DNA of 64,000 nt from Candidatus Paceibacter sp. (GCA_020724845.1 DYGE01000001.1:122664-186663), one strand, 5' to 3'. Positions 17,921-55,215 are shown, counted from the first letter of the stretch. The notes: a model not told the origin generated them from the sequence alone. Made by a program: numbers and translations.

Positions 17921-18000
17921 GTCAACCCCACACATAACTTAGGCCACATGAGGCAAAACAACTCTTGGAGTTGCTAGTCTAAGTTATGTGTGGGGTCAGC
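17921..18000. repeat. GTCAACCCC-foot hairpin repeat H1
   Basis: gtcaacccc followed by a 17 bp arm ccccacacataacttag, a 35 nt loop and the arm ctaagttatgtgtgggg. It is intergenic, just upstream of infA. Confidence 0.6.
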
Positions 18001-18047
18001 CCCTTATGCAACAAAGAAAAATCGGCATTTTTGCCGATGTATTAATA

Positions 18048-19127
18048 TTATTCCCGAACCACTAATCCCTTAGCCGCTTTAATGGTTACTTCCTTAAGCC
18101 CTCTTCTAACCTTGAAAGTCATTTCTTGGCCGACAGGCGCAGCGCGTATTCTTTCTATCGCCTGCCAGGATCCTTCTACCGGCTCACCGTCAATTTCCTC
18201 AATCAAGTCCTTCGGCTCAAAGCCGGCTCTTTCCGCCTCCGAATTCGGGAAAACCTGGATAACCTGTGCCGGAACGTTACCGCACTTAATATCGCTAGGA
18301 CAATTAAAGTGGACGCCTAGTCCCAAAAATCTCCTTCGATGTATAGTATCAATTCTAAATTTATCGCCGCTGATAACCGAGAGCTTCAAGAACGATTCTT
18401 TTTCCAAAGAATATTTTTCAGTGCCGGCGAGCGACTCCCTATCGGCAAATGTTCTTATGAAAACATCGTAGGCTTTTCCCGCATTATCAAATGACACGTC
18501 ACCTTTGTACAAAACCTTGCTCTTAAAAGCCGGCACTAAAGAAAGCAGCAAGTATTTGTATCCCTCGCCGTCCGCAAAAAATCCATGAACCAGCTGATCG
18601 CCCGCCTTAAAACCGGAACGGTCCGCCCAGCTTCCTTCCGTGACCGAACTAACCTTTGCGGAACCGATTTCTACCGGAATTTGGCTAAAAACTAGCTGCT
18701 CCAGCAATTCCTTGCTTGGGAAACTGTATGTTTTGACTTTAAAATCCTTCGGGCTATAGAACGCCAGCCGGGCATCTTCCCGCAAAGAAGCAAGGCGCGC
18801 GGATACGTCGGTTTCTGCCGGAACAACTTTGCCGTTGACTGCCAGCAGAAGGTCTCCGGCGCGAATATTTTCTCGAGAGAGATCTGACATATCATCGCCA
18901 GGCTGTAAATTGCCAAAATCGGCGTACCTGGAAGTTTCTTGAGGGGCTGCCTTCACGGCGGACAGGCGTAAATTAGAATTCTCTAAAACAAGGCCGATCT
19001 GTTTACGCAGGATATTCGCTTTCTGTTCCTGATTCAACGAAACGTGCAGCTGACGCGACTTCACGCGCATGGAGGCGCAGCCGCTGAAAACAACAGTAAG
19101 AGTAACGGCAACCAAGATTCTCTTCAT
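18048..19127 (-). CDS. Putative lipoprotein with PDZ domains
   Basis: The lipobox-like signal VVFSGC and two PDZ-like GD..LL/I motifs. Confidence 0.4.
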   Translation of the reverse strand: MKRILVAVTLTVVFSGCASMRVKSRQLHVSLNQEQKANILRKQIGLVLENSNLRLSAVKAAPQETSRYADFGNLQPGDDMSDLSRENIRAGDLLLAVNGKVVPAETDVSARLASLREDARLAFYSPKDFKVKTYSFPSKELLEQLVFSQIPVEIGSAKVSSVTEGSWADRSGFKAGDQLVHGFFADGEGYKYLLLSLVPAFKSKVLYKGDVSFDNAGKAYDVFIRTFADRESLAGTEKYSLEKESFLKLSVISGDKFRIDTIHRRRFLGLGVHFNCPSDIKCGNVPAQVIQVFPNSEAERAGFEPKDLIEEIDGEPVEGSWQAIERIRAAPVGQEMTFKVRRGLKEVTIKAAKGLVVRE

Positions 19128-19198
19128 TTCCTTTTCTCCTTTTCAAAAGATGGATACTGGCTGTAGGTTAATACAAATTATTCTTTTCGTCAACCCCG

Positions 19199-19327
19199 CA
19201 CCTTTGCGAAATAGAAATCTCCACGGGCTTCGATTTAGATAATCCCAATAGATATGTGGCATATTGACTGCTTCGGGGCTCTTTTCTGTATTTGTACTGA
19301 AAAGCAATCTCGCAAAGGTGCGGGGAA
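19199..19327. repeat. GTCAACCCC-foot hairpin repeat H2
   Basis: gtcaaccccgcacctttgcga ... tcgcaaaggtgcgggg with a loop of about 88 nt. It is an inverted homolog of H3. Confidence 0.6.
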
Positions 19328-19383
19328 ACTTTAAAAACAAAAAAGCCGCGTATTTACGCGGCGCGCCATAAAATCAGGGCTGG

Positions 19384-19541
19384 CTACTTTTTAGGGAGAA
19401 ACGGCAAAAGTAATCTCAAAAGATCCATCAGATCCCCAAAAACCTTTTTAAACCAGGGCTTGATCACCCAATAGAATACGCCCAAAGACAGAACGACACC
19501 CATCCCAAGCCCCACAAGAAGAAGGACCAAAGAAGTGAGCA
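19384..19541 (-). CDS. Possible small membrane protein (52 aa)
   Basis: Hand translation gives MLTSLVLLLVGLGMGVVLSLGVFYWVIKPWFKK.... There is a GAGGAA upstream, and a hairpin-plus-T-run terminator downstream at 19347-19372. It is below the ORF-track cutoff. Confidence 0.3.
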
Positions 19542-19666
19542 TGCTGTTCCTCAATGCGTGGAATGATGTACTGAGTTAAATAATATCCGAAATATCCAGC
19601 GGTGTCAATCTCTTGATTAGCTCCCCAACCCCTTCCCGCATTTTATACCGGAAGGTTCCGCTAATA

Positions 19667-21316
19667 TCACTCAACAGTAATGTTAATCTTGTCAGGATTT
19701 GTTGGCACGGTCTTTACCCAAAATGGCCATAGGGATATCGTCGCGCTTTCCAGGCCGGGCAAGGAAAAGACCGCGGTTTTTAGTTCTGTTTCTGATTTCC
19801 CTAAAATCCTGGACTGTAAATCATCAATATCAATGCGCTTTGCAAGGACCGCCTTGAAATCCACCGGGAAAGACAGGATGCCTTTTCCGAAATCAACCCT
19901 CGCCAGCCCGAACTCAATCTCCGAAGATCGGATGTCAAAATCTTCCCCATTGTCTCTTTTCGCTCTTAAAGCTAGCAGTTCCTGCAAGTCCTCTTCCTTG
20001 AAAGCCACCGCAGTCATTTTTGCTTCCGTAAAAATCCCAAATTCCCCATTCTCATCCGCCTCTTCATCAATTGCCTGCTCTAGCACCTCATACTCTGTTG
20101 CGCCATCAAGTACTTTGAACTCTTGGGGAATTTGAGTTAGCAAAGCGGCTTTTAGCCCACCCTCCAGCTCGTCCCCAGCTTTAGATCTTGCCTGGGCAAT
20201 ATCTTCGGAAGTCGGATAAGCAACTTCTCCAATAAAGCCTCCGGACATGTCGCCAGTAGATTCTCCATAAAAAGACTGATATTTGGGCGTTCCTTTAAAT
20301 CCGGGGATAGTAAATAGTTTCACCGGACCGATGTTAAATTCCGGCCCCGGCTCGTCGGCAATAACTTCCGCGTCAATGTTAGAAGGCACGATCTTACCTT
20401 CAATGATTTTGGCTCCCGGCACGGTTATGCCGTCAGCTAACCTATACATTTTTCCATCCGGACTTATAAAACGGGTTCGCTCAACCAATGGCTGCGGATC
20501 GGAACTGTAGCTGTTGTATACGGTAATTACGCCAGTCGCGTGCCGTTCAACTTGGCGCCTGCCAGTCGCGGGAAACTTGAGATGAAGATTCTTGCTTTCC
20601 GAAAAAATCTGGTTCGGAATACTCATGCTCCCGACATCTAAACCTATGCCGGTGTTGGTGTTGATGGAATCATTATAATTCCAATCCTTGGTCTGTGCCA
20701 CGATAGTAACCGCGGCCCGCGGCAAAACTACGGCTCCCGCCCAGCCGGCCAAAGCCAAAGCGGCGGCAACGATAAATATACTCAACCAGCGAGAGCTTGG
20801 CAAAGATAATTTAGGCATAGAAATTTTCGGCAAAGGCAATCGTCTTCCTTCCGTTGGCTTCTTTTCCTCCCCCTTTGACAGCTTGCCAAAAATAGTGAGC
20901 GGGCTCACCGGAGAGATAAATGGCTTTTCAGCTTCCGCTTCAATCGCCTTCGGCTCCTCCGCTTCTTCAACTTCCTCTTCCTGGAAAACTTTTGCTACCG
21001 GCTTTCTTTTCTTGGCCTTGCCTGCTTTTGGGGCGACTATGTCGGAAAACTGGCGCTTATTCTTAGTAAAGAATGGATTAACTGCTGACAGGCCGCTCAT
21101 TTCAGCTAATTCGATGACATGATCATCAACTGATTCAATAGAAATTTTTTTATCTAAGGCGTCGGCTTCCCGTTTCAAGAGGTGAAAATTACTCAAAGAC
21201 TCTCCTAGATGAGAAAACCTGGGTATGCTTAAAATAACCTCGTTATCAGGAGTATCGATAATTTTCTCAACGATGACCGCTACCTCATCGCTTTTGTTAA
21301 CTGAAATTTTCTTCAT
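19667..21316 (-). CDS. Bitopic membrane protein with a large extracytoplasmic domain; function unknown
   Basis: K/E-rich cytoplasmic N-terminus, one TM helix (WLSIFIVAAALALAGWAGAVV), then a roughly 330 aa outside domain. Confidence 0.4.
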   Translation of the reverse strand: MKKISVNKSDEVAVIVEKIIDTPDNEVILSIPRFSHLGESLSNFHLLKREADALDKKISIESVDDHVIELAEMSGLSAVNPFFTKNKRQFSDIVAPKAGKAKKRKPVAKVFQEEEVEEAEEPKAIEAEAEKPFISPVSPLTIFGKLSKGEEKKPTEGRRLPLPKISMPKLSLPSSRWLSIFIVAAALALAGWAGAVVLPRAAVTIVAQTKDWNYNDSINTNTGIGLDVGSMSIPNQIFSESKNLHLKFPATGRRQVERHATGVITVYNSYSSDPQPLVERTRFISPDGKMYRLADGITVPGAKIIEGKIVPSNIDAEVIADEPGPEFNIGPVKLFTIPGFKGTPKYQSFYGESTGDMSGGFIGEVAYPTSEDIAQARSKAGDELEGGLKAALLTQIPQEFKVLDGATEYEVLEQAIDEEADENGEFGIFTEAKMTAVAFKEEDLQELLALRAKRDNGEDFDIRSSEIEFGLARVDFGKGILSFPVDFKAVLAKRIDIDDLQSRILGKSETELKTAVFSLPGLESATISLWPFWVKTVPTNPDKINITVE

Positions 21317-21338
21317 TCTGTTAAAGATAGAAATCGTT

Positions 21339-22604
21339 TTATGTTACTAACCACCTCACTCTCCTGTTAGCCAAATGGCTCATCTTATCATTCTGCGGCA
21401 GGAAATTTATCTCGAAAAAAGCCGACAGCAAGGAGAACAGATTCCTTACCCTGACCGTTTTTTTCAATTGTACATCATATCCCAGCTTTTCAGTAATAAG
21501 ATTTGTGGATAAAGGAACTAGTTTCAATGATTTCTCAAAGCGGCTCTGAAATCTCCCGGAAAATACGATCGGGGGCATGGTAAAAAAGGAATTTACATAC
21601 ACCAAAGACACGCCGTCATTCGCGAGCGTCTCCAACCCGTTGGCGAATAATTGCAATTCCTTCACTAGGATATTTTCAAACCTTCTAAGAAATACCTGGG
21701 AAGCGTTATCCTCGGCATAATTTTGGATTATCTGCCTGGCGACCGGCGGATCAACTCGAAAATATCTGGCCAGCAAGTGGACTAAATCATTCTCCCCCCA
21801 GCCAAAATTGTCTAAATGAGCCAAGCGGCCATTTAAAGCGGAAAAAACAGAGGTTTGGTTTGGGAAAAGATTCGCCACTAAGAATTGGTTTTCCTCGAGA
21901 ACACGATTCAGCACATGGCTCATTGCCGTGCCCGATTCGGTTATAAGCGCTATATTGTCTTTCGGCAAAAGATCGCGTATTCCGCGCATCAACTCCCTAA
22001 TAATGAAAGTCTGGCTGAAAAATATTTCCACGGATTTCGCTTTGAAGCCGATTGGATTGACGATCTTGTGGCCGTCCAGCTTGATGCCGCGGATCCGGAC
22101 ATCGCTTAGCAGAACATCCACGTCATCAATATTCATTTTTCTGGCGACTCTCAATCGCTTGCGGTCAAAAAATCTCCAAATGGCCTGGGAAATCAAATTA
22201 TCAATATCCGCCTCATCAATAGTCTCTTTGCGATTCGGACGGACTAAAGAAACCGATGAATGGATCGTGGTGGCAAAGTCAGAATCTAGACTTAAAATAA
22301 TCTTATACCTCTCCAGCTTGCGGACTTTTTTCAGGCCCGCCTCCAGCTCGCGCAAAATTCCGGAGATGTTGAAATCCGCTACAGGAAGGATCCAATTTTT
22401 TTTGATATAAATTTTCCTGCGCTCCAAGCTAGCCTTTAAAACAGTTATTTGCACGTAATGATTCAGGACTTCTATGAGAAGGTAATTATCTCCGTATAAA
22501 AAGTGCAGAAGATGCTCCCTAGTCCGATTAAAACCCTTCTTCAAAGAAGAAAGAATGAGCGGAGTATTCTCCCTAATCGGATTTATGTAATTTAAGTCCA
22601 ACAC
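21339..22604 (-). CDS. Hypothetical protein, possibly a degenerate actin-fold FtsA/PilM-like protein
   Basis: Only weak resemblance to actin-like phosphate motifs (ILSLDSDFATT, LITESGTAMS). The call is speculative. Confidence 0.3.
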   Translation of the reverse strand: MLDLNYINPIRENTPLILSSLKKGFNRTREHLLHFLYGDNYLLIEVLNHYVQITVLKASLERRKIYIKKNWILPVADFNISGILRELEAGLKKVRKLERYKIILSLDSDFATTIHSSVSLVRPNRKETIDEADIDNLISQAIWRFFDRKRLRVARKMNIDDVDVLLSDVRIRGIKLDGHKIVNPIGFKAKSVEIFFSQTFIIRELMRGIRDLLPKDNIALITESGTAMSHVLNRVLEENQFLVANLFPNQTSVFSALNGRLAHLDNFGWGENDLVHLLARYFRVDPPVARQIIQNYAEDNASQVFLRRFENILVKELQLFANGLETLANDGVSLVYVNSFFTMPPIVFSGRFQSRFEKSLKLVPLSTNLITEKLGYDVQLKKTVRVRNLFSLLSAFFEINFLPQNDKMSHLANRRVRWLVT

Positions 22605-22649
22605 CCTTAATTATACCATAAAAACAAAATCGGCTCGCCTTGAGCCGAT

Positions 22650-23297
22650 TCAAACCTTGCGAGCCAGTATGGCGCGCGATAATTCGTCAAATTTAACGTC
22701 CGAGTTAGCTATTTGATACATAATCCCCTTGGTAGCATGCCAAAGCCCGAACAAATGCCCTTGTTCGTGGGCGGTAACCAAGGCCAGCTTCAAGCGATAA
22801 TCCAGGCGGCTAAAATCAGTTACTGGTAGCGCGTACCCGTTAATGGATTGCGCGTCATCGGTCCCCACAACCATCACTCCGTTGCCAGCGGCTTTACCCT
22901 TATGTATAGGCGCAAAGCCATTACCGGTGAGCATCAGGCCGCTCAAAAACAGACTGACGTTTGTCCTATCCTCGCCGCGAAGCAAGATCGCTTCTTCAAA
23001 CAAAATTAAATCCAGCTCCTTTTTGCAGACTTGATAGAAAAAAGATACTTTCGCGAGCGTTCTCAAGAAAAAAATCCACGCTTCCGCAAGGAAATCCCTT
23101 TTCCAATGCTTAACCTTGACGCGGTCAAGATCATATCTTAGCATCAGCCCGTTCTCAACTTGATATATGCGCATCACCTCTTCCAAAATATCTTTTGGAG
23201 TAACCTTGTGAGCATACAAATCTTCTCCCGCTTTCGCGTCCACATAAACAGTAACTGTCCTAAGCAGCCCCAAAGGACTGTAGTCGCTATCAGGCAA
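22650..23297 (-). CDS. Metzincin-type zinc metallopeptidase (archaemetzincin/M54-like)
   Basis: The extended zinc-binding motif HEQGHLFGLWH (HExxHxxGxxH) lies near the C-terminus of the 215 aa protein. Confidence 0.5.
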   Translation of the reverse strand: MPDSDYSPLGLLRTVTVYVDAKAGEDLYAHKVTPKDILEEVMRIYQVENGLMLRYDLDRVKVKHWKRDFLAEAWIFFLRTLAKVSFFYQVCKKELDLILFEEAILLRGEDRTNVSLFLSGLMLTGNGFAPIHKGKAAGNGVMVVGTDDAQSINGYALPVTDFSRLDYRLKLALVTAHEQGHLFGLWHATKGIMYQIANSDVKFDELSRAILARKV

Positions 23298-23364
23298 CTA
23301 TCCCCCGTATTTAGCTATAAAGAATCGTTATCTGTAAAATAACTCAATATCCAGAGCGAGTCAA

Positions 23365-23398
23365 AAGAAAAATAGTAAAAGCTCCGATTACTCGGAGC
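23365..23398 (-). terminator. Intrinsic terminator after the TelA-like gene
   Basis: Hairpin gctccgagtaatcggagc followed by a T-run on the minus strand. Confidence 0.55.
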
Positions 23399-23408
23399 TT
23401 GTGTAAAG

Positions 23409-24485
23409 TTAAGAATCCTGCCCGCCGTCCACGACCTCGGCGTCCACGACATTCGTCTTGTCCACCTTTTCGTTTTTCGGCTTCACCTCTTCCACTATCA
23501 CTTCGCCTTCTTCCCGGTCTCCATCTCCATCCTGATCGGCGCCACCCTTGTCCTTGTTGGGGCCGGTCAGCTGCTTCATGTTATCCTTACGCTTCTGCTT
23601 GAACTCCAGCAGTTCCTTATCCAGCGTCTTTCTGCCCTGGTCCAGCAGCTGGAGCATTGCCCCGGAGGTGATGGAATACTTATCCACCAACTGCGCCGCC
23701 TTAACCGAATGGTTGATCGCCTCGAGAGAAGCAATGAACACTTCGCTCAAAACACCCCTAGCGGCGAACATGGCTTGGCTCGTCTTAGTGAGCTCGCGCG
23801 CGGTATCCCGCAAAGCGCTCATCTCGCGCTGCGCCTGGGTGAAGTCATGATATTGCTTCATGCCTTGCCGGAAAACAGTGAGGCCGGCAATCGCCGAACG
23901 CCTCAACGTTTCCAGAAGCGCGTTGCCAATCACGATATTGCCTTTAAGGTTGTTGAGGATATCCTGCTTCTGCTCTTCTCTTTCCTCTTCTGTCAGCGCT
24001 TCAAACTCCTCGTCAAGCAGCTGCACCACCTCATCAAAGATCTCAATTCCAGCTTTCTCCGCCATGTAATTCTGAAGCTCTTGAGCGCTCCAATTTTCCT
24101 TTTCAGCGCGCTTGATGTCCTCTTCCAATTGCTGAAGCTCTTCTTTCTTTTTGATCGTAACCTGCGCGATAGTACGCAACGCTTCCTGGGTATTGTTCAG
24201 ATTCCCTTCCATCTGAGACTCCATCATGTTCATGACATCCGTCTCTTCCATAATGTAACGAGAAACCCGAGCCGGGAGTGCGGGCATCCAACTCTTAGGA
24301 GTAACTTTGGCTAGGGCTTTTGCAAGGATACCCCTGCCGTTACCACCATCCAAATTCAGCGCCTCTTTGATATCATCATTGATGCCCTGAAGGTTAGTAC
24401 CGCTCTCTTGCAACTTCTTGACAGCGGACCGCAAATCCGCATCCGACTGGATCTTCTTCAGCTCCTTCTTTTGGTTCTCGGACAT
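23409..24485 (-). CDS. Coiled-coil stress-type protein, TelA/PspA-like (toxic anion resistance family?)
   Basis: About 360 aa, strongly helical with heptad repeats, and a strong AGGAGG RBS before the MSENQKK start. The gene has about 57% GC against roughly 45% in its surroundings. The family assignment is tentative. Confidence 0.4.
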   Translation of the reverse strand: MSENQKKELKKIQSDADLRSAVKKLQESGTNLQGINDDIKEALNLDGGNGRGILAKALAKVTPKSWMPALPARVSRYIMEETDVMNMMESQMEGNLNNTQEALRTIAQVTIKKKEELQQLEEDIKRAEKENWSAQELQNYMAEKAGIEIFDEVVQLLDEEFEALTEEEREEQKQDILNNLKGNIVIGNALLETLRRSAIAGLTVFRQGMKQYHDFTQAQREMSALRDTARELTKTSQAMFAARGVLSEVFIASLEAINHSVKAAQLVDKYSITSGAMLQLLDQGRKTLDKELLEFKQKRKDNMKQLTGPNKDKGGADQDGDGDREEGEVIVEEVKPKNEKVDKTNVVDAEVVDGGQDS

Positions 24486-24583
24486 CGTGCCTTCCTCCTT
24501 CTTCCTTTTACAGATTTTAACTTCTTGATGCTGGTCATATATTAGCATATTACTTAAAAGGCGTCAAGGACATTCAGGCCCAA

Positions 24584-24609
24584 AGAAAAACCACCCTGTG
24601 TCAGGGTGG
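24584..24609 (-). terminator. Intrinsic terminator
   Basis: Hairpin ccaccctgacacagggtgg followed by a T-run on the minus strand. Confidence 0.55.
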
Positions 24610-24620
24610 CCCGATAAGAG

Positions 24621-24869
24621 TTATCGGAAGAAAGTGTTGCCGTTCCGCACCGCATACCAGATGTAAGCGAGTACGAGAACAACCGCTAAAGGAAGGGCAA
24701 ACGAGGAGAATAAGCCAATCACCAGAGCCAGCGCCCAGAATACTCCGTAAGCGCTGACTAAGAAGAGAATGGCCCGCATCAGCAAGCCGCCGGAGGATCC
24801 CTTCAGCAGGTACTTGAGAAGCGCCAAAACGAGCGGATTCAGTAAGAGCTTACGCAGGATCGGAGGCAT
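24621..24869 (-). CDS. Small two-TM membrane protein (82 aa)
   Basis: Two hydrophobic helices. It lies in the GC-rich cassette and overlaps the upstream ORF by 20 nt. Confidence 0.4.
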   Translation of the reverse strand: MPPILRKLLLNPLVLALLKYLLKGSSGGLLMRAILFLVSAYGVFWALALVIGLFSSFALPLAVVLVLAYIWYAVRNGNTFFR

Positions 24870-25200
24870 TGCCCTCCGCGCCTCCTTTGTCGATCTTGGT
24901 CTCCTCAGCGGTCGTCTCGATCACCTGATCCGTCTGACCGACCTCTTTGACGTAGCCCTCCAAAGCCGCCCTGGCGCCGGCGACAACCGACTCCACGGCT
25001 TCGCTGTGGGTCTGGCCCACCTTGCGAAGCGGCTCGTAACGCCCGTAGAGCAGGCGCTTCAGCTGAAGGTTCGGATCCACCGAACGCTTCGCCGTCTCCA
25101 CCACTTCGGCGCCGGCTCGCTTCGCGAGACCGAGTATGTCCTGTCCGACTTTCAGCGCCGCCTGTCCGAGCGATTCCTTCCCGGGTCTTCCTCCCGTCAT
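24850..25200 (-). CDS. Small soluble Ala/Gly/Val-rich hypothetical protein (116 aa)
   Basis: GC-rich coding region; the AAAGGAGAGG RBS sits 7 nt upstream of the ATG. Confidence 0.4.
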   Translation of the reverse strand: MTGGRPGKESLGQAALKVGQDILGLAKRAGAEVVETAKRSVDPNLQLKRLLYGRYEPLRKVGQTHSEAVESVVAGARAALEGYVKEVGQTDQVIETTAEETKIDKGGAEGNASDPA

Positions 25201-25262
25201 ATTCTCACCTCTCCTTTGCAGTTTCCACTAGCTGTCAAACTATGCTGCTTTGCATATACTAA

Positions 25263-25298
25263 CAAAAAAGCCATCTCCCGTCAAGAGCGAGAGATGGC
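25263..25298 (-). terminator. Intrinsic terminator
   Basis: Hairpin gccatctctcgctcttgacgggagatggc followed by TTTTTT on the minus strand. Confidence 0.55.
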
Positions 25299-25314
25299 TC
25301 GGTAATTTCCAGCG

Positions 25315-26130
25315 CTACCAACGCTTCCAATCAAAGACAGCCGCGGTTACTAAACTCTGAAGCTTCTCAAGTTCAAAATACTTGGTGCTCTCCTGAAAAA
25401 CTTGCTCAACCTCAACAGCGTTCCCGATCTTCAGCGCGCACTCGGCTGTTAAAACTATGACGCCATCATCAAGCAGACGACTCTCCCTTTTAACCTCAAA
25501 ATGGTGCTCCAGGAATTTCCTATCGCCTGATCGAATGGCGACCAATTGCTTGATGCGCAGCCGATCTTTTTCGTCAACTTTCAAAATAGTCTGCAGCATA
25601 ATCTTATAAGATACCGTACGGCTTTTAAAAGCGCCTAAAAATCCTCCTTCCCCGCAGCTGCAGGATATGGTCTCCTCCGATAAAACCGCCCACTCGGTGA
25701 AAGAATTAAGAAGAGCAGCCAACGTAGGATTGCTCACCCTTTTACCGGCGCTAATTTCTCTTGGCGCGGCTGGATTTTTCCAATCAAGATAACTCGCTAT
25801 ATCCGCTACCACAGATCCAGGCGAAGGCAGCTTAGTGGCCTTATCCCAGGCAATCTTACGATTAATTAAGTCGTCATTCAGATACCTAATCGTTTCTGCC
25901 TGCGCCTTGAGCGCTGCATAAAACATCACCAGAAGATAAGAAGTGCTTGCGTTCTCTTTGCAAAACCTCTTGATCTTCCCGCAAATCCGCTGCAGCCTCC
26001 GGATTGACTTATGGTAGTCAACGAAATCCCGGGGCAGATCTTTTTGAGCGAGCTTAACCTGATCTGGCGCCGCTTGGCCGTTTGTCGATTTCGGTATTCT
26101 CCCCTCTATATCTCCACCATAGTATACCAT
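25315..26130 (-). CDS. Hypothetical protein
   Basis: A 271 aa ORF containing a CSCGEGG cysteine cluster; no family assigned. Confidence 0.35.
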   Translation of the reverse strand: MVYYGGDIEGRIPKSTNGQAAPDQVKLAQKDLPRDFVDYHKSIRRLQRICGKIKRFCKENASTSYLLVMFYAALKAQAETIRYLNDDLINRKIAWDKATKLPSPGSVVADIASYLDWKNPAAPREISAGKRVSNPTLAALLNSFTEWAVLSEETISCSCGEGGFLGAFKSRTVSYKIMLQTILKVDEKDRLRIKQLVAIRSGDRKFLEHHFEVKRESRLLDDGVIVLTAECALKIGNAVEVEQVFQESTKYFELEKLQSLVTAAVFDWKRW

Positions 26131-26132
26131 TC

Positions 26133-26738
26133 TTAACCCTCCGGATCCGATTCAGATTCAACAATCTTCTTTGGTTTGCGCGCGGTAAGTTCATGGCGCA
26201 GCTCCTTAAAAGGAAAAAACTCCTGGCCATCAAGCGAATGCGATTTTAGCAGTTCATGGCATCGGAAATACACGAGACTGTCAGCTTGGTAAATAATCGC
26301 AGTCAAAACAACTGTTGCGATGAATGTTCCCATGCCACCGAAAAACCAGAAGGCGGCATCTCCTAGAAAGAAGCCCATTTTCAGATACAAGGATACCAGA
26401 GAAATACTGACCAAGGGGTATGAAATCCTTTGAAGGATCGCCCAGGGCTTCGCTTTTTCAGCGAGAAAATCAGCTAATTCTCTCAACTGGCCCTCGTTGA
26501 AAGCCCGTAAATTCTTTCTGCGCACCCCCTCAAAGTGGCGCGCCGTTTCAATGAAAGCTTTCACGAATTTTTCCTTACGCTCGCGCAATTCTCCGCTCAT
26601 AACCTTTATTGCGGCTATCCTCCGCGTCCGTTCGTTGCCCTCTCTCACGCTTCGCAAAGTCTCCAACAACTGCTCGCGCTCCCTCTGCTTGACCAGATTG
26701 GCTTCCGGCCTTTGGACCATAGCTTGCTCGCCTGGCAT
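26133..26738 (-). CDS. Membrane protein with a cytoplasmic helical N-domain and a C-terminal TM bundle
   Basis: The 201 aa architecture is shared with the ORF at 27003-27659 and may be paralogous. Confidence 0.4.
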   Translation of the reverse strand: MPGEQAMVQRPEANLVKQREREQLLETLRSVREGNERTRRIAAIKVMSGELRERKEKFVKAFIETARHFEGVRRKNLRAFNEGQLRELADFLAEKAKPWAILQRISYPLVSISLVSLYLKMGFFLGDAAFWFFGGMGTFIATVVLTAIIYQADSLVYFRCHELLKSHSLDGQEFFPFKELRHELTARKPKKIVESESDPEG

Positions 26739-26797
26739 ACTTCCTCCTTTTCACTTCTCAAGAAGATTACCTGACTGTTTCATATTATATAATAATA

Positions 26798-26950
26798 ATT
26801 GTAAAAGGTCAACCCCGCACCTTTCAAGGATTGCTTTTCAGAATAGACGCTGAAAAGAGGATAACGATTTATCTATAACAATCTTTAACTAAAATACCTT
26901 ACTGAATTCACGTATGGGTGAATTCTTATCCTTGAAAGGCGCGGGTCAAT
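26798..26950. repeat. GTCAACCCC-foot hairpin repeat H3
   Basis: gtcaaccccgcacctttcaaggat ... atccttgaaaggcgcgggtcaat with a loop of about 105 nt. Confidence 0.6.
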
Positions 26951-27002
26951 AAAAAAGCCTCAAGGATTGTTATCCTTGAGGCGGCTGAAACAAAAGCGGT
27001 TA

Positions 27003-27659
27003 TTACTTCTTCGCTTCCTGACGATTCTGGTTCCACCCAAGACAAGCGGCAAATTTTTCCACTGGAAAGTAATTCTGCCCGTAATGCCTTTTCAGCAAAG
27101 AACGGAAATAAAAGAACCTTAGGCCAGTGATAACCGAATTCTTGCTGTAAAAGACGATTCTACCCGCGGATTTCAACAGGCCTCCGACAAATGAAAGAAG
27201 CTGTCCTTGTAGAATTTTTCTGCCCAAAACCAGGGGAAAAACAACCGCTATCACTAAAGATATCAATAACAAAGGAAGTAAGACCGGAGCTAAAATCAGA
27301 GAACCGATTCCTAAGATCGGAACATAAAGCCCCGTCTTCATAATAAACCACACAACCAGGAAGCCGGCGCCAAGTTCGAGCGGCGCCCAAACGGCCATGC
27401 TCCTCATTACCTTTCTGGCGAGCAGATTGGCTGTTTCTGACAGCTGTTCCTGATTAAATCCGGTTAAGTCGGTTATATGGCCAATGACTTTATGGGCTCT
27501 GGCCAGCTTAAGAAAATCTGCCATAAACTGATCCCTGGCCCCCGATAACTTCAGCTGCAACTCTCTCTGCTGTCTCTCGGAAGATTTGCTAGCCAGCTTA
27601 GAAATGGTTGCCTCGCGCGGAGTGGACTTGATCAGCTTGAATGATCGCTCTTCGTCCAT
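27003..27659 (-). CDS. Membrane protein with a cytoplasmic helical N-domain and a TM bundle
   Basis: A 218 aa ORF. The terminator hairpin gcctcaaggataacaatccttgaggc sits downstream at 26946-26975. Confidence 0.4.
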   Translation of the reverse strand: MDEERSFKLIKSTPREATISKLASKSSERQQRELQLKLSGARDQFMADFLKLARAHKVIGHITDLTGFNQEQLSETANLLARKVMRSMAVWAPLELGAGFLVVWFIMKTGLYVPILGIGSLILAPVLLPLLLISLVIAVVFPLVLGRKILQGQLLSFVGGLLKSAGRIVFYSKNSVITGLRFFYFRSLLKRHYGQNYFPVEKFAACLGWNQNRQEAKK

Positions 27660-27740
27660 CTTTTCCCTCCATATTCGGATTTTCCTGTACCGAGATACAT
27701 GATAACATATTTTTCTAAAAAAGCAAAATTTAAAAACGCC

Positions 27741-28358
27741 TCATTCTTGAGGCGCTAAATGAATTTCTTTTGCTTCCTTTATAACTTTTTCCAGCTCATC
27801 CGCCAGCTCCTCGCTGACACTCTTGACCATCCGCTTATTGGAACGCCAGCGATTTTGGATAATCTCTCTGTTTATCTCTATCACTTTCAAATGCGGCACT
27901 TTAACCTCTCTCAACTCTCCATCAATCCATTTCACAACCGTTTTAATGCCATCGGGCAATTTTACCGATAATACAGCTCTTAAACGCTCCTTATTTTTAC
28001 CTAATTTAGGCCGATATTCCATTTTAACGGAGACAAAGTGCGGCACATGCTCCGAATTCGGCACAGCCCGGTAATCAACTAAACTATGCTTGCGGCTCTT
28101 TAACTCTTCCTGCAGCGAATCAAGCAATTTCGCCGCTATTTTCTCTTGCTCCTTATACTTATCGGAAGACACCTCGTTTCCTTCCGCCCAGCGGACTATC
28201 CTTGAGTCTTTAACTTCTAAATTCTGGTAAACATCAACGTAACCCAAGACTATCATATAGCCGGCCGCTGGCGATACATTCATGGCCATCAAACTGAAAG
28301 ATAAAATCCCTGCCAGTATCGCTTTCTGGCGGCTTGCCATTTGCCTGCCTGCCTTCAA
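27741..28358 (-). CDS. Signal-anchored hypothetical protein
   Basis: N-terminal hydrophobic segment and a charged C-terminal domain (205 aa). Confidence 0.35.
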   Translation of the reverse strand: MKAGRQMASRQKAILAGILSFSLMAMNVSPAAGYMIVLGYVDVYQNLEVKDSRIVRWAEGNEVSSDKYKEQEKIAAKLLDSLQEELKSRKHSLVDYRAVPNSEHVPHFVSVKMEYRPKLGKNKERLRAVLSVKLPDGIKTVVKWIDGELREVKVPHLKVIEINREIIQNRWRSNKRMVKSVSEELADELEKVIKEAKEIHLAPQE

Positions 28359-35977: not shown

Positions 35978-36017
35978 ACCAGAATTTTAATCCAAATTTT
36001 GGCTAATTAAAAGACTT

Positions 36018-36088
36018 GGCCCCACACATAACCGGAGTTAGCACTAAGTACGCAAACTTTACCGCTCTGGTTATGTGTGGGGTTGACA
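36018..36088. repeat. GTCAACCCC-foot hairpin repeat H4, in inverted orientation
   Basis: ccccacacataacc ... ggttatgtgtggggttgac. It lies in the divergent dnaG/rpmB intergenic region. Confidence 0.6.
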
Positions 36089-36123
36089 TAGACAGTTTTC
36101 AACTATAAGATAAAAGCTAACTT

Positions 36124-38854: not shown

Positions 38855-39445
38855 ATGATTTTTGGGGCACTGCTTTTGACAGTGGTACTGCCAGTGATAG
38901 GCATCACCGCTTGCGTCGGCATCCATCATTACAAAGAGAATAAACTGCTGGAAATTTTCTTGGTCATTGCCGAGAAATCAATTAACCAAAAAATCAAAGA
39001 TGAGCAGGCGGACAAAGCCATAAACATTCTGCATAACAACAAGAAAATACCCGCGCCGAATCCGATCCAGATAAACATCTACAACCCAGACGGAGCCATA
39101 GTGGCCTTTTATCTCTTTAAGGCCGAAATACGATACCTGCTGGATTGCATAGATAAGCGCCGAAATCAGAGAAAATACCTTTCCTCGCTGTCTCCCAGGG
39201 CTAGAGGTGACGTACTTAAATTCATTGATAACACAAAGAGATTTCTAAAATTCATTGACTTTGATCATATGGATTTTGAACTGCGATCCCTGTTTCTGCA
39301 CAAAACCTATCGCGCAACCGTGCTGATGTGCCGAAAAATCCCGGATGAAAACAATTATCCTGAGCTGGATTTCATCCCGCTTTTTGAAATTGTTGATAAA
39401 AGCCCCACTAGAACCGTACGACTACTGCCTTACTTCCCTACTTAA
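38855..39445 (+). CDS. Hypothetical signal-anchored protein
   Basis: N-terminal TM helix (196 aa). Confidence 0.35.
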   Translation: MIFGALLLTVVLPVIGITACVGIHHYKENKLLEIFLVIAEKSINQKIKDEQADKAINILHNNKKIPAPNPIQINIYNPDGAIVAFYLFKAEIRYLLDCIDKRRNQRKYLSSLSPRARGDVLKFIDNTKRFLKFIDFDHMDFELRSLFLHKTYRATVLMCRKIPDENNYPELDFIPLFEIVDKSPTRTVRLLPYFPT

Positions 39446-39518
39446 TCCCACACATAACTAAGGTTAGCGCCATAGGCGCAAGTTTTAACTGTCTTAGTTG
39501 CGTGTGGGATTTTTGATT
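39446..39518. repeat. Hairpin repeat H5 (cacacataac family, degenerate foot)
   Basis: atcccacacataactaag ... cttagttgcgtgtgggat. It sits between convergent gene ends and overlaps the last codons of the exonuclease gene. Confidence 0.55.
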
Positions 39519-40102
39519 GGCAATTCTTTAATGGATTTATAAACGTCGTAAGCGGCTCTGGCGCCGTTAATAGCGCGGTGCGGCAATGGCTCCGGGTGAA
39601 GTCCTAGAAATTCTGCCAGCCGGCTTAATCGGTATTTTTCCAGCTCATACCCCTTGGCCTCCAAAGCCGCCTTAGCGTGGCTTAAAAGGTCAATCCGATG
39701 ATAATCTAAGGAAGTCTTAATACCAGTCAGCGCATAAGCTATGTCCATGAAGCCCCAGTCCCAGGTGACATTATGCGCGGTGAACACTGCCTCCTTAACT
39801 TTTTCGTTGTACAAGGCCATCGCCTCTTTTAGGCTAAGCGCGTCCTTCCAATCTGCCTCATCATAGCCATTAACTTCTTGAGCGCCGGGATCCATGCGTT
39901 CCGGATGCTCAATCTTAACTTTGACATTGAGTTCGTCCATAACCGTCAGAGTTTTCTGATCAGCCAGTATCAGGCCAATCTCGCAGATTTCGTGCCAGGG
40001 CTGAAAAATTCCGTTTTCGTAACGGAACATTTCCAGGCCGGTCATTTCCAAGTCGGTAAACGCCAGCGGCCTGTCTAAAAAACTCATTTTATCTTCTTGC
40101 AT
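39494..40102 (-). CDS. DEDD-family 3'-5' exonuclease (DnaQ / oligoribonuclease-like)
   Basis: Exo I motif FTDLEMTGLE and the FTAHNVTWDWGF segment (202 aa). Confidence 0.65.
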   Translation of the reverse strand: MQEDKMSFLDRPLAFTDLEMTGLEMFRYENGIFQPWHEICEIGLILADQKTLTVMDELNVKVKIEHPERMDPGAQEVNGYDEADWKDALSLKEAMALYNEKVKEAVFTAHNVTWDWGFMDIAYALTGIKTSLDYHRIDLLSHAKAALEAKGYELEKYRLSRLAEFLGLHPEPLPHRAINGARAAYDVYKSIKELPIKNPTRN

Positions 40103-48540: not shown

Positions 48541-48611
48541 AGCTTACCTCCAAAGATTGTACGGCCTTGCACTAGCGATATAATAACACGAAAAGTAACT
48601 TAATGCAAGAT

Positions 48612-48908: not shown

Positions 48909-48949
48909 ATATTCATTATACTAGATTGTTGTCAGTTGTTAATTGTTTC

Positions 48950-50980: not shown

Positions 50981-51008
50981 TATTTAAATAATAGTACAGG
51001 CCGGTTTT

Positions 51009-52343
51009 TTAGACAATCACGCCTCCGCCAAGCATCATTATAGAATTTGAACCCTCCTTCGCTGAAGCTTCCGCCTTCGCCAAGGCTTCGGCGGACAGGT
51101 CGGCGGGCAAGTAAAACACCGCCGATTGCCCAGAGGCAACAAATTTTTGAGGTTGGCTAAATACAAGCTTGAATAAAGAATTATGAATCACGAATGATGC
51201 GGGAACTAGCGGCTGCCTATAGCGCACTCGCGCTAAAACTGGAACGCTTAATTCCTTATTCTTAATTCCCCTGCCGCCTGCCCGGCCAGGGGGCAGGCTT
51301 AATTCCATATTTACAAGATTCACATCTCTTAACTCAATCTCCTTTTTGTAAAGCATCGGGTCGTCCTCCGAAGCTATAACGACAGTATTAGTTTTCACAT
51401 CCTTGCTCGCCACATAAAATGGTTGTTGGTTATTAGTTGTCGGTTGTAAGTTCACCCCTATGCGCCTTTGGCCGATCGTATAAAAATACGCTCCGCTATG
51501 CTTTCCGACTGTTTCGCCAGCGGAATTCAAGACTAAGCCCATTTTTTCCGGAATGTAATTACCCAAAAAATCCTTAAGCGTAACCTGCCCAAGAAAACAA
51601 ATCCCCTGCGAATCCTTTTTCTCGGCGTTCGGCAAGCCAAATTTCTTTGCCAGCTTCCTCACCTCCGGCTTGGTATATTCACCAATCGGAAACAAACAAT
51701 GCCGTAGCTGCTCCTGCGTCAGCGTCCATAAAAAATAGCTTTGATCTTTATTTTTGTCTTTAGCGATATATAAAGAAAAAATATTTTGGGTCAATCTGCC
51801 GAATTGTCGTGGAGAAACTACGGAAGCGCCAAAAGATTGGTTTCCGCTGAAGGCGGAATTTTGGCGCTGAGGCGTAGCGGGCACTCGCCGCTGGAGCGAG
51901 TGAACCGCGGTTCTCGCAGACGATTCGACTGAGCGACTTCTGCCCAAGCGGACATAGTGCCCGGTCGCCACATAGTCCGCCCCCATTTCCAATGCCTTCT
52001 GCAGAAACAATCCAAACTTAATCTCCTTATTGCACATCACATCCGGATTCGGCGTAAGACCTTTGCGATATCCGTCAACCATATATTCAACCACTTTATC
52101 TTTATATTCCTGCTCCATGTCAAAAACATAAAATGGAATGCCTAAAACCTCCGCCGCTCTTCGCGCGTCCTCCGCATCCTGTTCCGCGCAACCGTCAACG
52201 TTGTAGCACTTTAAATGCGCGCCAACCACGTCAAAACCGCGCTCTTTCAAAAGCGCCGCCGCAACAGACGAATCCACTCCCCCGCTCATTCCCACGAATA
52301 CCTTTTTGATCTTTTTACTTTTTGGCATAGCTATAAAATACAA
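51009..52343 (-). CDS. mnmA: tRNA-specific 2-thiouridylase, with a low-complexity insertion of about 60 aa
   Basis: PP-loop VGMSGGVDSS, then CNKEIKFG, ATGHY and DQSYFL motifs. An Ser/Arg/Gln-rich insert lies between HYVR and DQSYFL. Confidence 0.8.
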   Translation of the reverse strand: MYFIAMPKSKKIKKVFVGMSGGVDSSVAAALLKERGFDVVGAHLKCYNVDGCAEQDAEDARRAAEVLGIPFYVFDMEQEYKDKVVEYMVDGYRKGLTPNPDVMCNKEIKFGLFLQKALEMGADYVATGHYVRLGRSRSVESSARTAVHSLQRRVPATPQRQNSAFSGNQSFGASVVSPRQFGRLTQNIFSLYIAKDKNKDQSYFLWTLTQEQLRHCLFPIGEYTKPEVRKLAKKFGLPNAEKKDSQGICFLGQVTLKDFLGNYIPEKMGLVLNSAGETVGKHSGAYFYTIGQRRIGVNLQPTTNNQQPFYVASKDVKTNTVVIASEDDPMLYKKEIELRDVNLVNMELSLPPGRAGGRGIKNKELSVPVLARVRYRQPLVPASFVIHNSLFKLVFSQPQKFVASGQSAVFYLPADLSAEALAKAEASAKEGSNSIMMLGGGVIV

Positions 52344-52395
52344 TCATTTTTAATGAAAAGCAAATATATTTTTCGTTATCTATTATGGCCGTTCG

Positions 52396-53697
52396 TTATT
52401 TATCAGTTGTAAGTTGCGGGTCGTTTGTCACTTTGTATACATCCCCCGCGCCCATAGCGATAATCATGTCTCCTTTCTTCGCCTCTAATATTAGAGCCGC
52501 GCGCGCATCAGCAAAAGAACTTACGTATCGCGCGTTTTTGTGGAATTTCTGCATTTTCTCCACCAAATCCCGCGAGTGGGTGCCATCGTCTTTTTCCCGC
52601 GCCGCGTAAATGTCCGCCACCAGCACCGCGTCCGCGTCACCAAAGCTTTTCGCAAAATCATTCATTAATAATTTCGTCCGGCTGAAAAGATGCGGCTGGA
52701 ACACACAAAAAACCTTGCGTTTACCCTGGGCTTGTCGAAGGGCCGCTAATGTGGCTCTGATCTCCGTCGGATGATGGCCGTAGTCGTCATACACCAGCGC
52801 GCCGCTTTTAGTCTTTCCTTTGTATTCAAATCTCCGCCAGGTGCCGCCGAACTCCTTCAGCGATTTTGCGGCCTGCTTCACATTCGCTCCAAGAATTTTA
52901 GCCACCGCCAGCGCCGCCTGCGCGTTTTCCTGATTGTGCCTGCCGATCAGTTTCAAATTTAGATTCCGCGGCATCTTGGTATAGTCAACCACAGTACAAC
53001 GCGTGCTCCTTACTATTGGAGCAAGATATTTCCCATTCGGATTGCATACGATAAAGCCATCCGGACCGGCCTTCTTCACAAATTCAGTAAACGCCTTCTG
53101 GATATTTTGAACCGTCCCATAATAATCCAAATGGTCGTTATCAATGTTGGTAACCACCGCGATCTTCGGATGAAGGTTGAGGAAAGATTTTTTATACTCG
53201 CACGCTTCCACCACAAAATAATTGCTTTTGCCGGCAACAAAGTTACTTTCTCGCCCTGAGCCAGTCGAAGGGTCTCCTTTAAGGAGGCTGCCGACAATAA
53301 TCGTCGGATCCAATCTTAAATCCCGAAGCATAGTGCCAATCATCGCCGTAGTAGTTGTTTTTCCATGAGAACCGGATACCGCGATAGTATATTTGTCTTT
53401 GGAAATTTCACCAAGCATTTCAGGATACGACAACGTTCGAATGCCAAGATTTTTTGCTTTAATCAATTCCGGATTATCTTCGCGGATCGCCGGCGAGTAC
53501 ACCACCAGATCAACATCCTTATGTAAATTTTTCTCGTCATGCCCAAAATAAATTTTCGCCCCAAGTTTTTGCAACTCTTCCGTAATCTCCGACCGGGACA
53601 TATCCGAACCAGTGACGCTTTTGTTTTTCGCTAGCATCATCCTCGCAATCGCCGAAACCCCGATGCCTCCGACGCCTATGAAATGTGCTCTTTTCAT
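52396..53697 (-). CDS. murC: UDP-N-acetylmuramate--L-alanine ligase
   Basis: HFIGVGGIGVSAIA N-terminus and a Mur ligase P-loop GSHGKTTTT. I chose the start at MKRAHF. Confidence 0.85.
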   Translation of the reverse strand: MKRAHFIGVGGIGVSAIARMMLAKNKSVTGSDMSRSEITEELQKLGAKIYFGHDEKNLHKDVDLVVYSPAIREDNPELIKAKNLGIRTLSYPEMLGEISKDKYTIAVSGSHGKTTTTAMIGTMLRDLRLDPTIIVGSLLKGDPSTGSGRESNFVAGKSNYFVVEACEYKKSFLNLHPKIAVVTNIDNDHLDYYGTVQNIQKAFTEFVKKAGPDGFIVCNPNGKYLAPIVRSTRCTVVDYTKMPRNLNLKLIGRHNQENAQAALAVAKILGANVKQAAKSLKEFGGTWRRFEYKGKTKSGALVYDDYGHHPTEIRATLAALRQAQGKRKVFCVFQPHLFSRTKLLMNDFAKSFGDADAVLVADIYAAREKDDGTHSRDLVEKMQKFHKNARYVSSFADARAALILEAKKGDMIIAMGAGDVYKVTNDPQLTTDK

Positions 53698-54431
53698 AAA
53701 CCCCACCCCTTTATTGCCTTTTCCCACCTCTGCAAATTCCCACAGTCAAACCATTTGCCGCTTGATTTATAAGCCGCCAGCTTACGCTCCGCCGCTAGCT
53801 TGGGAAACAAGTCTTTTTCAATCATTAAAAATTTCTCCCCGGCTTGGATTTTGCCAGCCAGATGTTCGCGAACCTTCGGATCAATCAGATAAAGGCCGGA
53901 AGAAATAAAATTCGTCGGCGGATTTTCCGGTTTTTCTAAAAAATTACAAATGTGATCGCCCTCACAAATTAATACGCCATATTCGTTCGGGTTCGGCACC
54001 TCCACCGCCGCAATCGTCGCCAGCCCACGAACTTTTTGATGATGCGCAGCCATCGCAGAAAGATCTACTTCTTTCAACTCATCGCCGTTCGTCAAAAAGA
54101 ACGGCTCATCTCCGGTCCAGGTATGAAGCTGGTGCGCCCAATAGCCGAAAGTGCCCATCGGCTCCTCTTCCGCCATCAGATTAATCCATAGTCCGTTAAA
54201 ATTATTCTGATAACGCCTTAGCCACCAGGAAAAATCCTCCAGATCATCTTTACGTACGGTAATCGCCACCTCCTCTACCCCGTGCGCCTTAAACATTCCA
54301 ATGAGGTAGTTGATGATCGGCTTTTTATTCACCGTAAGTAGCGGCTTAGGAGTTTCCAAAGTAACCGGATAAAGCCGAGTTCCTTTCCCGCCGGCAAGAA
54401 TAATCGCCTTTTTAATTCTTATTCCGTTCAT
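53694..54431 (-). CDS. Sugar-phosphate nucleotidyltransferase (G1P thymidylyl/uridylyl- or mannose-1-P guanylyltransferase-like)
   Basis: N-terminal AIILAGGKGTRLYPVT motif. Confidence 0.7.
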   Translation of the reverse strand: MNGIRIKKAIILAGGKGTRLYPVTLETPKPLLTVNKKPIINYLIGMFKAHGVEEVAITVRKDDLEDFSWWLRRYQNNFNGLWINLMAEEEPMGTFGYWAHQLHTWTGDEPFFLTNGDELKEVDLSAMAAHHQKVRGLATIAAVEVPNPNEYGVLICEGDHICNFLEKPENPPTNFISSGLYLIDPKVREHLAGKIQAGEKFLMIEKDLFPKLAAERKLAAYKSSGKWFDCGNLQRWEKAIKGWGL

Positions 54432-54471
54432 ACACCTAAATATAACCTATTTCCGGTCTGCAGGGTTAACC

Positions 54472-54499
54472 AAAAAAATATCCACGTCCGAAGACGTGG
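54472..54499 (-). terminator. Intrinsic terminator ending the GC-rich non-coding transcript
   Basis: On the minus strand CCACGUCUUCGGACGUGG is followed by AUAUUUUUUU. Confidence 0.65.
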
Positions 54500-55100
54500 A
54501 TGAAGGGGGTCGGAAAACGCACTTGGCGATCCTGAAAGGCGAGGTTTTCCCTGGCCTTAATCAAGTTCGCTTATCAGTATCCAGCTTGCCCCGATGTTAT
54601 GGGTAAGCGGGCGGGAATCAGATGTTGAAGGCCAGAGATCCGGCGCGCGCGATTGGCGCGCGGCCCATGGATTGCCTTCTTCCGAGGATTCCCACTGGAT
54701 ACTTGTCACCCTGCATTTCGCAAGGCTGCGTTTTCCGGTGAAGGTACGAAAGAGAAGTGGCTTTTGCCGGTGCTTGATTTACTCGCGTGCTTCAGACGCA
54801 TTTGCGAAGTAAATCCCGACAGGCCCGGATGTCGCGACACCCGAGACGCTCCATATGGGAACACAGCCCATAGAAGCGAAGCCGACCTGATGCGCCGAGG
54901 GAGCGAGTCACGGGGGATCGTGCCCGTTCCTTTGTACCCCACCAACTCCGCCTCAATTGCGGTAGCTGGACTCGGTGACCAGGTTCTAACCATCCCAGAG
55001 CGTTGTTGCGCCCTGGGTGCATTCTCCGCGGCGCCAGCCGACGCCCCCGTATCGGGAGGGCCAGCTCGTTCTGCGCCTGACCGGAGAAGATTTTCAAGGT
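54500..55100 (-). ncRNA. Candidate large structured ncRNA, or an unusually long attenuator-type leader, of about 620 nt; identity unknown
   Basis: About 58% GC against about 45% around it. It has no credible ORF in any frame; the six-frame ORFs here are Arg/Ser/Pro-rich artefacts that overlap on both strands. It is bounded by a consensus promoter (55108-55135) and the intrinsic terminator (54472-54499), and contains many local GC helices. Confidence 0.45.
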
Positions 55101-55107
55101 TAGGGAC

Positions 55108-55135
55108 ATTATAGCATAATAACAGAATCTGTCAA
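55108..55135 (-). promoter_or_regulatory. Consensus sigma70 promoter firing leftward
   Basis: On the minus strand TTGACA (55135-55130), a 16 nt spacer, then TGCTATAAT, an extended -10 (55116-55108). The -35 hexamer is supplied by the GGGGTTGACA end of hairpin repeat H6. Confidence 0.55.
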
Positions 55136-55215
55136 CCCCTTAGTAGAACTTCGGCTAGGCCGCCTTTAGCGGCCTTATCGCTGAAAGCCACCGAAGTTTC
55201 ACTAAGGGGTCAAGC
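55131..55215. repeat. GTCAACCCC-foot hairpin repeat H6
   Basis: gtcaacccc-ttagtagaacttcgg ... ccgaagtttcactaagggg-tcaagc, with an inner hairpin ggccgcctttagcggcc. Confidence 0.55.

Follow-up and report, generated by a model that had tools for sequence, protein, structure and literature searches.

The 64,000-nt stretch of Candidatus Paceibacter sp. DNA considered here (GCA_020724845.1 DYGE01000001.1:122664-186663; hereafter the window, with positions counted from its first nucleotide) carries housekeeping genes of a Patescibacteria (candidate phyla radiation, CPR) genome. These include infA, rpmJ, the rpsM-rpsK-rpsD-rpoA-rplQ cluster, dnaG and a sigma factor, as well as those for the alanyl- and aspartyl-tRNA synthetases (AlaRS and AspRS), ComEC, MurC, EF-P and proteins like those of type IV secretion systems (T4SS); the named best matches of the AspRS are all from Parcubacteria-type Patescibacteria. 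Dispersed among these genes are seven palindromic hairpins, about one per 9 kb, which in our view are probably non-autonomous foldback transposable elements resembling miniature inverted-repeat transposable elements (MITEs) and belong to a family spread across the Patescibacteria. Although the kind of element is known, the family appears to be new: searches of the literature by sequence motif and by topic found no account of such elements in CPR bacteria, and the hairpins overlap no Rfam match, either at gathering thresholds or at E<=1 (only a tRNA-Pro attains its gathering score).

The hairpins were recovered by an inverted-repeat scan of the 64 kb and by a scan for hairpins that start with CCC and end with GGG. 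An initial annotation had described six of them, and both the inverted-repeat scan and the folding statistics agree with it, with some boundaries moved by about 10 nt (H2 and H3 below). These six rank among the longest inverted repeats of the window, with arms of 18-20 bp that are 89-100% complementary. Folded as single-stranded DNA, the hairpins give z-scores from -4.3 to -7.1, which none of 200 shuffles equalled. The seventh, H7, had been missed; it was found in the CCC/GGG scan and is also present in the inverted-repeat scan. The complete set in the window is as follows.

H7, 17511-17626, 116 nt: class B, arms CCCGTTAGAGGC; flanks TTCA (17507-17510) and TTCG (17627-17630)
H1, 17926-17995, 70 nt: class A, arms CCCCACACATAAC; flanks TCAA (17922-17925) and TCAG (17996-17999)
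H2, 19194-19325, 132 nt: class C, arms CCCCGCACCTTTG; left flank TCAA (19190-19193), right flank AAAC, degenerate
H3, 26813-26945, 133 nt: class C, interior inverted relative to H2; flanks TCAA (26809-26812) and TCAA (26946-26949)
H4, 36020-36082, 63 nt: class A; flanks TTGG (36016-36019) and TTGA (36083-36086)
H5, 39446-39509, 64 nt: class A with decayed arms; left flank TTAA (39442-39445)
H6, 55136-55209, 74 nt: class B-like, arms CCCCTTAGTAGAACTTCGG; flanks TCAA (55132-55135) and TCAA (55210-55213)

All of these elements (63-133 nt) lack coding capacity. The three arm classes recognised at the outset are borne out, and the arms of H7 add a fourth sequence to them. H2 and H3 had been called inverted homologues of each other, which is true of their interiors: these are homologous and mutually inverted.

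Each hairpin is a foldback of the form Y-CCC...GGG-R that lies between direct, not inverted, 4-nt repeats TNNA, in the window mostly TCAA/TTGA. When the flanks of 32 copies, from the window and from other loci, were tabulated, their consensus was N-T-N-N-A-Y | CCC...GGG | R-T-N-N-A-N. The two middle flank positions agree between left and right in 29/32 and 30/32 copies, where about 11 would be expected, and the T and A around them are almost fixed. The outermost bases are not duplicated (11/32 and 16/32, near chance), and the innermost ones, Y on the left and R on the right, pair with each other in 30 of the 32 copies (16 expected). The left and right flanks match 128 times, as against 86 +/- 6 when the flanks are permuted. 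CCC and GGG are invariant in the tabulated copies, with the sole exception of the right end of H3, which is GG. Judged from these alignments, the element proper would be Y-CCC...GGG-R and the duplicated target TNNA, with TTGA/TCAA the most frequent duplication overall. A 6-nt duplication (GTTGAC) was considered and rejected: its outermost base is not duplicated and its innermost base pairs with its counterpart.

This anatomy also accounts for the foot GTCAACCCC, which had been taken for a feature of every copy. It occurs five times in the window against 0.2 expected, a count that 0/100 shuffles attained, and only five of the copies have it; H5 reads CTTAATCCC instead. The foot had further been described as one side of a palindrome with GGGGTTGAC at the far end, an arrangement seen in 0/7 copies. 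The far ends carry instead a direct repeat of the flank (GGGGTCAG in H1, GGGTCAAT in H3 and GGGGTCAAG in H6), and the outer part of the foot is thus flank, not stem. Moreover, since the interiors of H2 and H3 are inverted and yet both adjoin TTGAC, the TTGAC must belong to the target and not to the element. The shared GTCAACCCC, which on the strand of the downstream gene is GGGG-TTGAC(A/C), can accordingly be read as TCAA from the duplication, C from the terminal pair and the CCC of the element end.

Between their fixed ends the elements, which overall range from 27 to 150 nt, consist of a class-specific inverted repeat of 10-13 nt, a remaining stem that is variable but paired, and a freely variable interior. 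The proposal that the stems co-vary is upheld by an alignment of 20 class A copies, in which the arms are invariant and the distal stem differs from copy to copy while remaining 97.8% paired. Seven of its pairs are changed on both sides, and 0/500 shuffles reach such a degree of pairing.

The orthologous intergenic regions of two relatives with shared synteny (L022 and L023; 47-50% identity in the PDZ protein) reveal empty sites. These relatives are distant (~50% amino-acid identity), too distant to date the insertions. Both have 82 bp between the PDZ gene and infA, with the sequence ...gatttttcttattaacattaGGGGTTGACttt...TAATAT...; at the H1 site the window has ...gatttttctttgttgcataaGGGGCTGA-[C CCCACACATAAC...GTTATGTGTGGG G]-TTGACaat...TATACT.... 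The empty site itself is ...ttaGGGGTTGACttt... in the relatives; their cttattaacattaGGGGTTGACttt corresponds to cataaGGGGCTGA[C-CCCACAC...GTGTGGG-G]TTGACaat in the window, and their infA promoter carries GGGGTTGAC uninterrupted. The terminator, -35 box, -10 box and leader at H1 are all conserved with the relatives; what is extra in the window is the hairpin and a second TTGA. Similarly, the infA-rpmJ gap is 14 nt in L022 and L023, and the window has these nucleotides plus H7 (116 extra nt). For both H1 and H7 there is thus a filled site and an orthologous empty one, with target and promoter intact. The spacers at two further copies are also shorter in L022: 45 bp vs 147 bp between dnaG and rpmB (H4), and 77 bp vs 539 bp 5' of the PDZ gene (H2). 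In all, the syntenic 21 kb of L022 contains no elements and the matching part of the window five; a class A covariance model detected no hidden copies in the relatives' loci.

The initial annotation had remarked that several copies lie in promoter regions. A scan for consensus promoters placed strong sigma-70-like promoters next to 4/7 copies, each with a -35 hexamer whose first bases are the duplicated TTGA; the four score 10-12 out of 12 and their -35 boxes begin at 17925, 26812, 36083 and 55135. Just upstream of H1, H2 and H3 stand the intrinsic terminators of the preceding genes.

17896-17925, minus strand: infA promoter, TTGACA, 18-nt spacer, TATACT, 11/12, TG-extended; adjoins H1 and is conserved in L022 and L023
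26784-26812, minus strand: promoter of the gene for a 201-aa protein (26133-26738), TTGACC, 17-nt spacer, TATAAT, 11/12; adjoins H3
36083-36111, plus strand: promoter of rpmB (L28), TTGACA, 17-nt spacer, TAAGAT, 10/12; adjoins H4
55108-55135, minus strand: promoter of a non-coding unit, TTGACA, 16-nt spacer, TATAAT, 12/12, TG-extended; adjoins H6
18021-18038, minus strand: intrinsic terminator belonging to the PDZ-protease gene; read on this strand, it comes directly before H1
19345-19362: terminator upstream of H2
26957-26982: terminator of the gene upstream of H3

The rpmB start (36125, plus strand) comes from the L28 reading frame, taken from the sequence and compared with L022. The same promoter pattern recurs in other genomes (L001, L005, L008 and L014). 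By our own tally of the listed flanks of all copies, 8/14 outward-facing TTGA ends are promoter-like, with a -10-like hexamer at 16-18 nt, as opposed to 8% of all TTGA sites in the same DNA, a background that takes in coding as well as intergenic sites and hence overstates the enrichment. The simplest reading is that an intrinsic preference for TTGA is combined with the survival of those insertions that rebuild the -35 box.

The gene contexts given earlier for the copies were right (infA for H1, the dnaG/rpmB divergent region for H4, a position between convergent genes for H5, and one 5' of a non-coding unit of ~620 nt for H6), and it was roughly true that all copies are intergenic. Two of them nevertheless touch coding sequence. 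H7 lies within the operon of infA and rpmJ, immediately 5' of the rpmJ ATG, and this start codon (minus strand, window 17626-17629) is composed of the terminal A of H7 and the TG of the target duplication. At H5, the left duplication TTAA carries the stop codon of the gene at 38855-39445, and the right arm (39494-39509) supplies the final ~5 codons and the stop of a DnaQ-like gene (39494-40102, minus strand). The non-coding unit next to H6 (54478-55098, minus strand) is GC-rich, has no credible open reading frame (ORF) and matches nothing in Pfam or Rfam; the 12/12 consensus promoter stands at its start (55135-55108) and an intrinsic terminator at its end (54501-54480), and it probably represents a large non-coding RNA.

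Beyond the window, the family is found in other Patescibacteria. An exact-match scan for CCCACACATAAC, N25-55 and GTTATGTGTGGG, with one genome per species, yielded 20 loci, all of them from Patescibacteria metagenome-assembled genomes (MAGs): Saccharibacteria, Sungiibacteriota, Azambacteria and unclassified ones. Nine of the loci are in one Saccharibacteria MAG and five in another Patescibacteria MAG. A second class, CCCGTTAGAG, which is that of H7, co-occurs with class A in these loci, as does a 129-nt element resembling H2 and H3. The arm classes that recur in multiple copies in unrelated MAGs are CCCACACATAAC, CCCGTTAGAG and CCCCGCACCTTT, with the flank rule unchanged. A closer relative of the window (L109, AspRS 74% identical) has three class C copies. 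There are also nested copies (L002, 6105-6268) and forms of only 27 nt that consist of arms alone (L004 and L007). The view that the hairpins are a dispersed family of palindromic repeats is therefore supported, and the family extends to many Patescibacteria genomes. In the NDK-permease spacer, L109 has a 135-nt class C-like element (12072-12206), and the equivalent spacer of L108, a genome from the same assembly, holds a 23-nt mini-hairpin, TACCCTGAACTTATTGAAGGGTT (12035-12062), which looks like an internally deleted remnant. The ~9.5 kb that extend beyond the window start (L104) contain a single doubtful relative at 6498-6550, ~2.9 kb from that start: a 53-nt hairpin, TTACCACCCGTTAAG...CTTAACGGGTGGTAA, 5' of an hpf-like gene, with arms that resemble class B and flanks that are inverted, not direct. 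It may be a member of the family in decay, or a leader structure unconnected with it.

Taken together, the window contains short non-coding sequences in dispersed copies, with terminal inverted repeats, target duplications that vary from copy to copy, and filled sites with empty counterparts; this is what a MITE-like family looks like. The elements themselves, their duplications, the empty sites, the distribution and the coincidence with promoters are direct observations, from which we infer the chemistry of transposition, an enzyme to carry it out and the neutrality of the insertions. A transposase acting in trans would cut the two strands of a TNNA target 4 nt apart and join the element to it, leaving TNNA on either side. 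TTGA, the target favoured, coincides with the first four bases of TTGACA, the sigma-70 -35 hexamer. In so gene-dense a genome, insertions would survive chiefly between a terminator and the next promoter, and one that falls within a -35 box would be tolerated in view of the duplication, which would rebuild TTGAC(A) directly beside the element. Such rebuilding would also be the reason why five copies seem to share the foot GTCAAC-CCC. What is unusual for elements of this sort is the conservation of arm classes across distant CPR lineages, the compensatory changes in the stems and the systematic insertion into -35 hexamers.

Several points weigh against a MITE-like origin, or against details of it. 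A 2-nt duplication combined with element ends A...T predicts identical sequences and is by sequence alone indistinguishable from the 4-nt one, and the duplications are imperfect in H2, H4, H5 and H7. For ordinary MITEs derived from insertion sequences (IS) it is unusual that arms of 12 nt should be identical between very distant CPR lineages, and also that one small genome should contain three to four arm classes. The compensatory stem changes suggest that the hairpin as such is selected or homogenised, and not only the ends that a transposase would bind, and the enrichment at promoters is, as noted, overstated. Finally, the window, the 20 hairpin loci and viral contigs yielded neither an autonomous element nor a transposase with such ends. 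Pfam and NCBIfam annotation revealed no transposase, integrase or REP-associated tyrosine transposase (RAYT; REP, repetitive extragenic palindrome) among the ~40 proteins of the window, and the only protein families that recur near hairpins in the 20 loci are housekeeping ones. Viral contigs searched for class A and class C arms gave no matches. The largest repeat unit in the copy-rich MAG, at ~175 bp, is a nested pair, and long-range arm pairs enclosing ORFs were absent.

With regard to the missing enzyme, the ends of the element are perhaps relevant. The arrangement of piggyBac is TTAA|CCC...GGG|TTAA, with TCAA, TAAA and TTAG reported as target variants, and IS1380 elements, its prokaryotic relatives, serve as the outgroup in the same paper (PMC10813416). 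The Patescibacteria elements likewise start with CCC, end with GGG and duplicate a 4-nt T..A target, but they have an extra covarying Y-R pair between the duplication and CCC/GGG, the two middle bases of their target are free, and TTGA is preferred over TTAA. This is a resemblance only, to be treated as a lead and not as a claim of membership, and no DDE/DDD transposase was found in the window or near the copies. A bolder version of the MITE-like interpretation, doubtful but conceivable, is that a family with piggyBac-like ends (TNNA|Y-CCC...GGG-R|TNNA) is moved by a piggyBac/IS1380-like transposase as yet unrecognised in the CPR, or by an enzyme that recognises hairpins, and homes into -35 hexamers and rebuilds them, some copies perhaps having been co-opted. 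Were recognition to rest on the hairpin and not on its sequence, the existence of several arm classes and the compensatory changes in the stems would both be accounted for. As for co-option, one copy gives rpmJ its start codon and one provides a stop codon, and several may insulate the gaps between terminators and promoters.

The initial annotation had itself leaned towards either REP/REPIN elements or a family of regulatory palindromes or small RNAs. That the hairpins are functional palindromes under selection at promoters (an operator, a cruciform or insulator, or a substitute for an UP element), including mobile elements co-opted later, gains some credit from the exact placing of 5/7 copies in the gap that separates an intrinsic terminator from a -35 box, from the strength of the promoters at four of them, and from stems that are kept by compensatory changes and arm sequences that are conserved across phyla. 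The relatives, however, have the same promoters and operons without any element, H5 and H7 lie away from promoters, and copies at equivalent promoter positions differ in their arms and occur in both orientations; moreover, the TTGA duplicated at the far end is a target sequence and not part of a module. We consider this explanation unlikely. Were the hairpins instead small structured RNAs, either sRNA genes or transcribed cis-acting elements, the compensatory stem changes, the strong folding z-scores and the inner GC hairpins with GNA/GNRA-like loops would be readily understood, and H5 and H7 are certainly within transcripts. Yet the five copies that are 3' of a terminator and 5' of a -35 box are probably not transcribed, no copy has an evident promoter or terminator of its own, the orientation to neighbouring genes is not fixed, and arm-only and nested forms exist. 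The lack of an Rfam match even at E<=1, the flanking target duplications and the orthologous sites without hairpins point in the same direction, and make an RNA family very unlikely.

The comparison with REP/REPIN elements mobilised by RAYT, a Y1 HUH transposase, is a natural one: in both, the hairpins are dispersed outside genes and combine a conserved foot with a distal stem that varies. In L008 there is even a RAYT-like gene (PF01797, E=8.8e-12, with HUH and Y motifs in its translation) at a distance of ~150 bp from one copy each of classes A and B, and a homologue search found this gene family to be very abundant in CPR metagenomes. The gene's own flanks, though, are ATGTTCGAGGTCCGACCTCGAACAT and not class A or B arms. 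The homologues in 80 loci have palindromes of their own, perfect and 27-45 nt long with 3-nt loops, which border the genes and often interrupt them; class A/B/C arms are present in only ~5/80, never adjoining the gene. Neither the window nor the other hairpin loci contain a RAYT homologue. Unlike REP/REPIN elements, those described here have long variable interiors and target duplications, which are specific to each copy and are not a product of single-strand Y1 transposition. Mobilisation by RAYT, which we rejected on account of the separate palindromes and the duplications, is quite unlikely. As an aside, the Y1_Tnp (RAYT-like) proteins (L008, 2140-2924, and L024-L103) are ~230 aa long and highly abundant in both CPR and Omnitrophota metagenomes, and many of their genes have an extra copy of the palindrome within the reading frame, ~200 nt from the start. 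Structure-specific recombination sites of the integron attC or Xer/dif type would also combine a variable sequence with a conserved hairpin, and the arms contain AAC...GTT motifs as well as CATAA/TTATG, which presumably resembles the inner part of Xer-binding arms. But the copies stand singly among housekeeping genes and not in cassette arrays, the window has no integrase or intI, the bases of the hairpins are YCCC/GGGR and not RYYYAAC/GTTRRRY, and site-specific recombination would not yield 4-nt duplications peculiar to each copy; such sites are an extremely improbable explanation.

Of the well-described bacterial families, the MITEs and palindromic repeats known from reduced or compact genomes, such as the Correia elements of Neisseria, the palindromic elements of Rickettsia, the pneumococcal RUP and bcr1 of Bacillus cereus come closest. 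They are likewise short, non-coding and multi-copy, with hairpin-forming terminal inverted repeats, target duplication, intergenic sites with occasional contact with coding ends and, often, no transposase nearby. There is no sequence similarity between any of these and the Patescibacteria elements, which differ in their 4-nt TNNA duplication and in their host range. The duplication is TA in Correia and RUP and TTTAT in bcr1. In the Patescibacteria elements, furthermore, all classes have only CCC/GGG and one covarying pair in common, and the arms of 10-13 nt are conserved within each class across distant CPR phyla. An interplay with promoters is common to both sides: in Correia elements the ends contribute promoter boxes, whereas here it is the duplication that preserves the -35 box.

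Mobile DNA is usually said to be scarce in the tiny, gene-dense genomes of Patescibacteria, and a foldback family common to distant lineages of the group would imply that transposition there is ongoing or recent. The elements may add to the fragmentation of repeat-rich assemblies, and they offer markers for strain comparison. To our knowledge there are almost no promoter data for these bacteria; insertions that duplicate TTGA leave the promoter intact and could thereby pinpoint real sigma-70-type -35 boxes. Should the enzyme prove to be piggyBac/IS1380-like or structure-specific, its interest would extend more widely, to the evolution of transposons and to genetic tools for CPR bacteria.

Two other features of the window deserve mention. 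Between the AlaRS-like and PDZ genes, ten consecutive genes (19667-28358) have no Pfam or NCBIfam match, and in the place of this block the syntenic region of L022 has only two (nearly) unannotated genes. A larger structured foldback repeat, with no match in Rfam, is present in two copies (3470-3797 and 60219-60460). Its highly conserved core, which includes ACATAACCAGAAAGTATCCTCTGTGCGGCAACTGACGGAATCCTGATTTGCT ... GGATACTTTCTGGTTATGACACTTTGTCCCCACCGCGCA, looks pseudoknotted, the inner hairpins vary in length, and the outer stems are non-homologous between the copies and self-complementary within each. Other assemblies of the same genome break exactly at this repeat.

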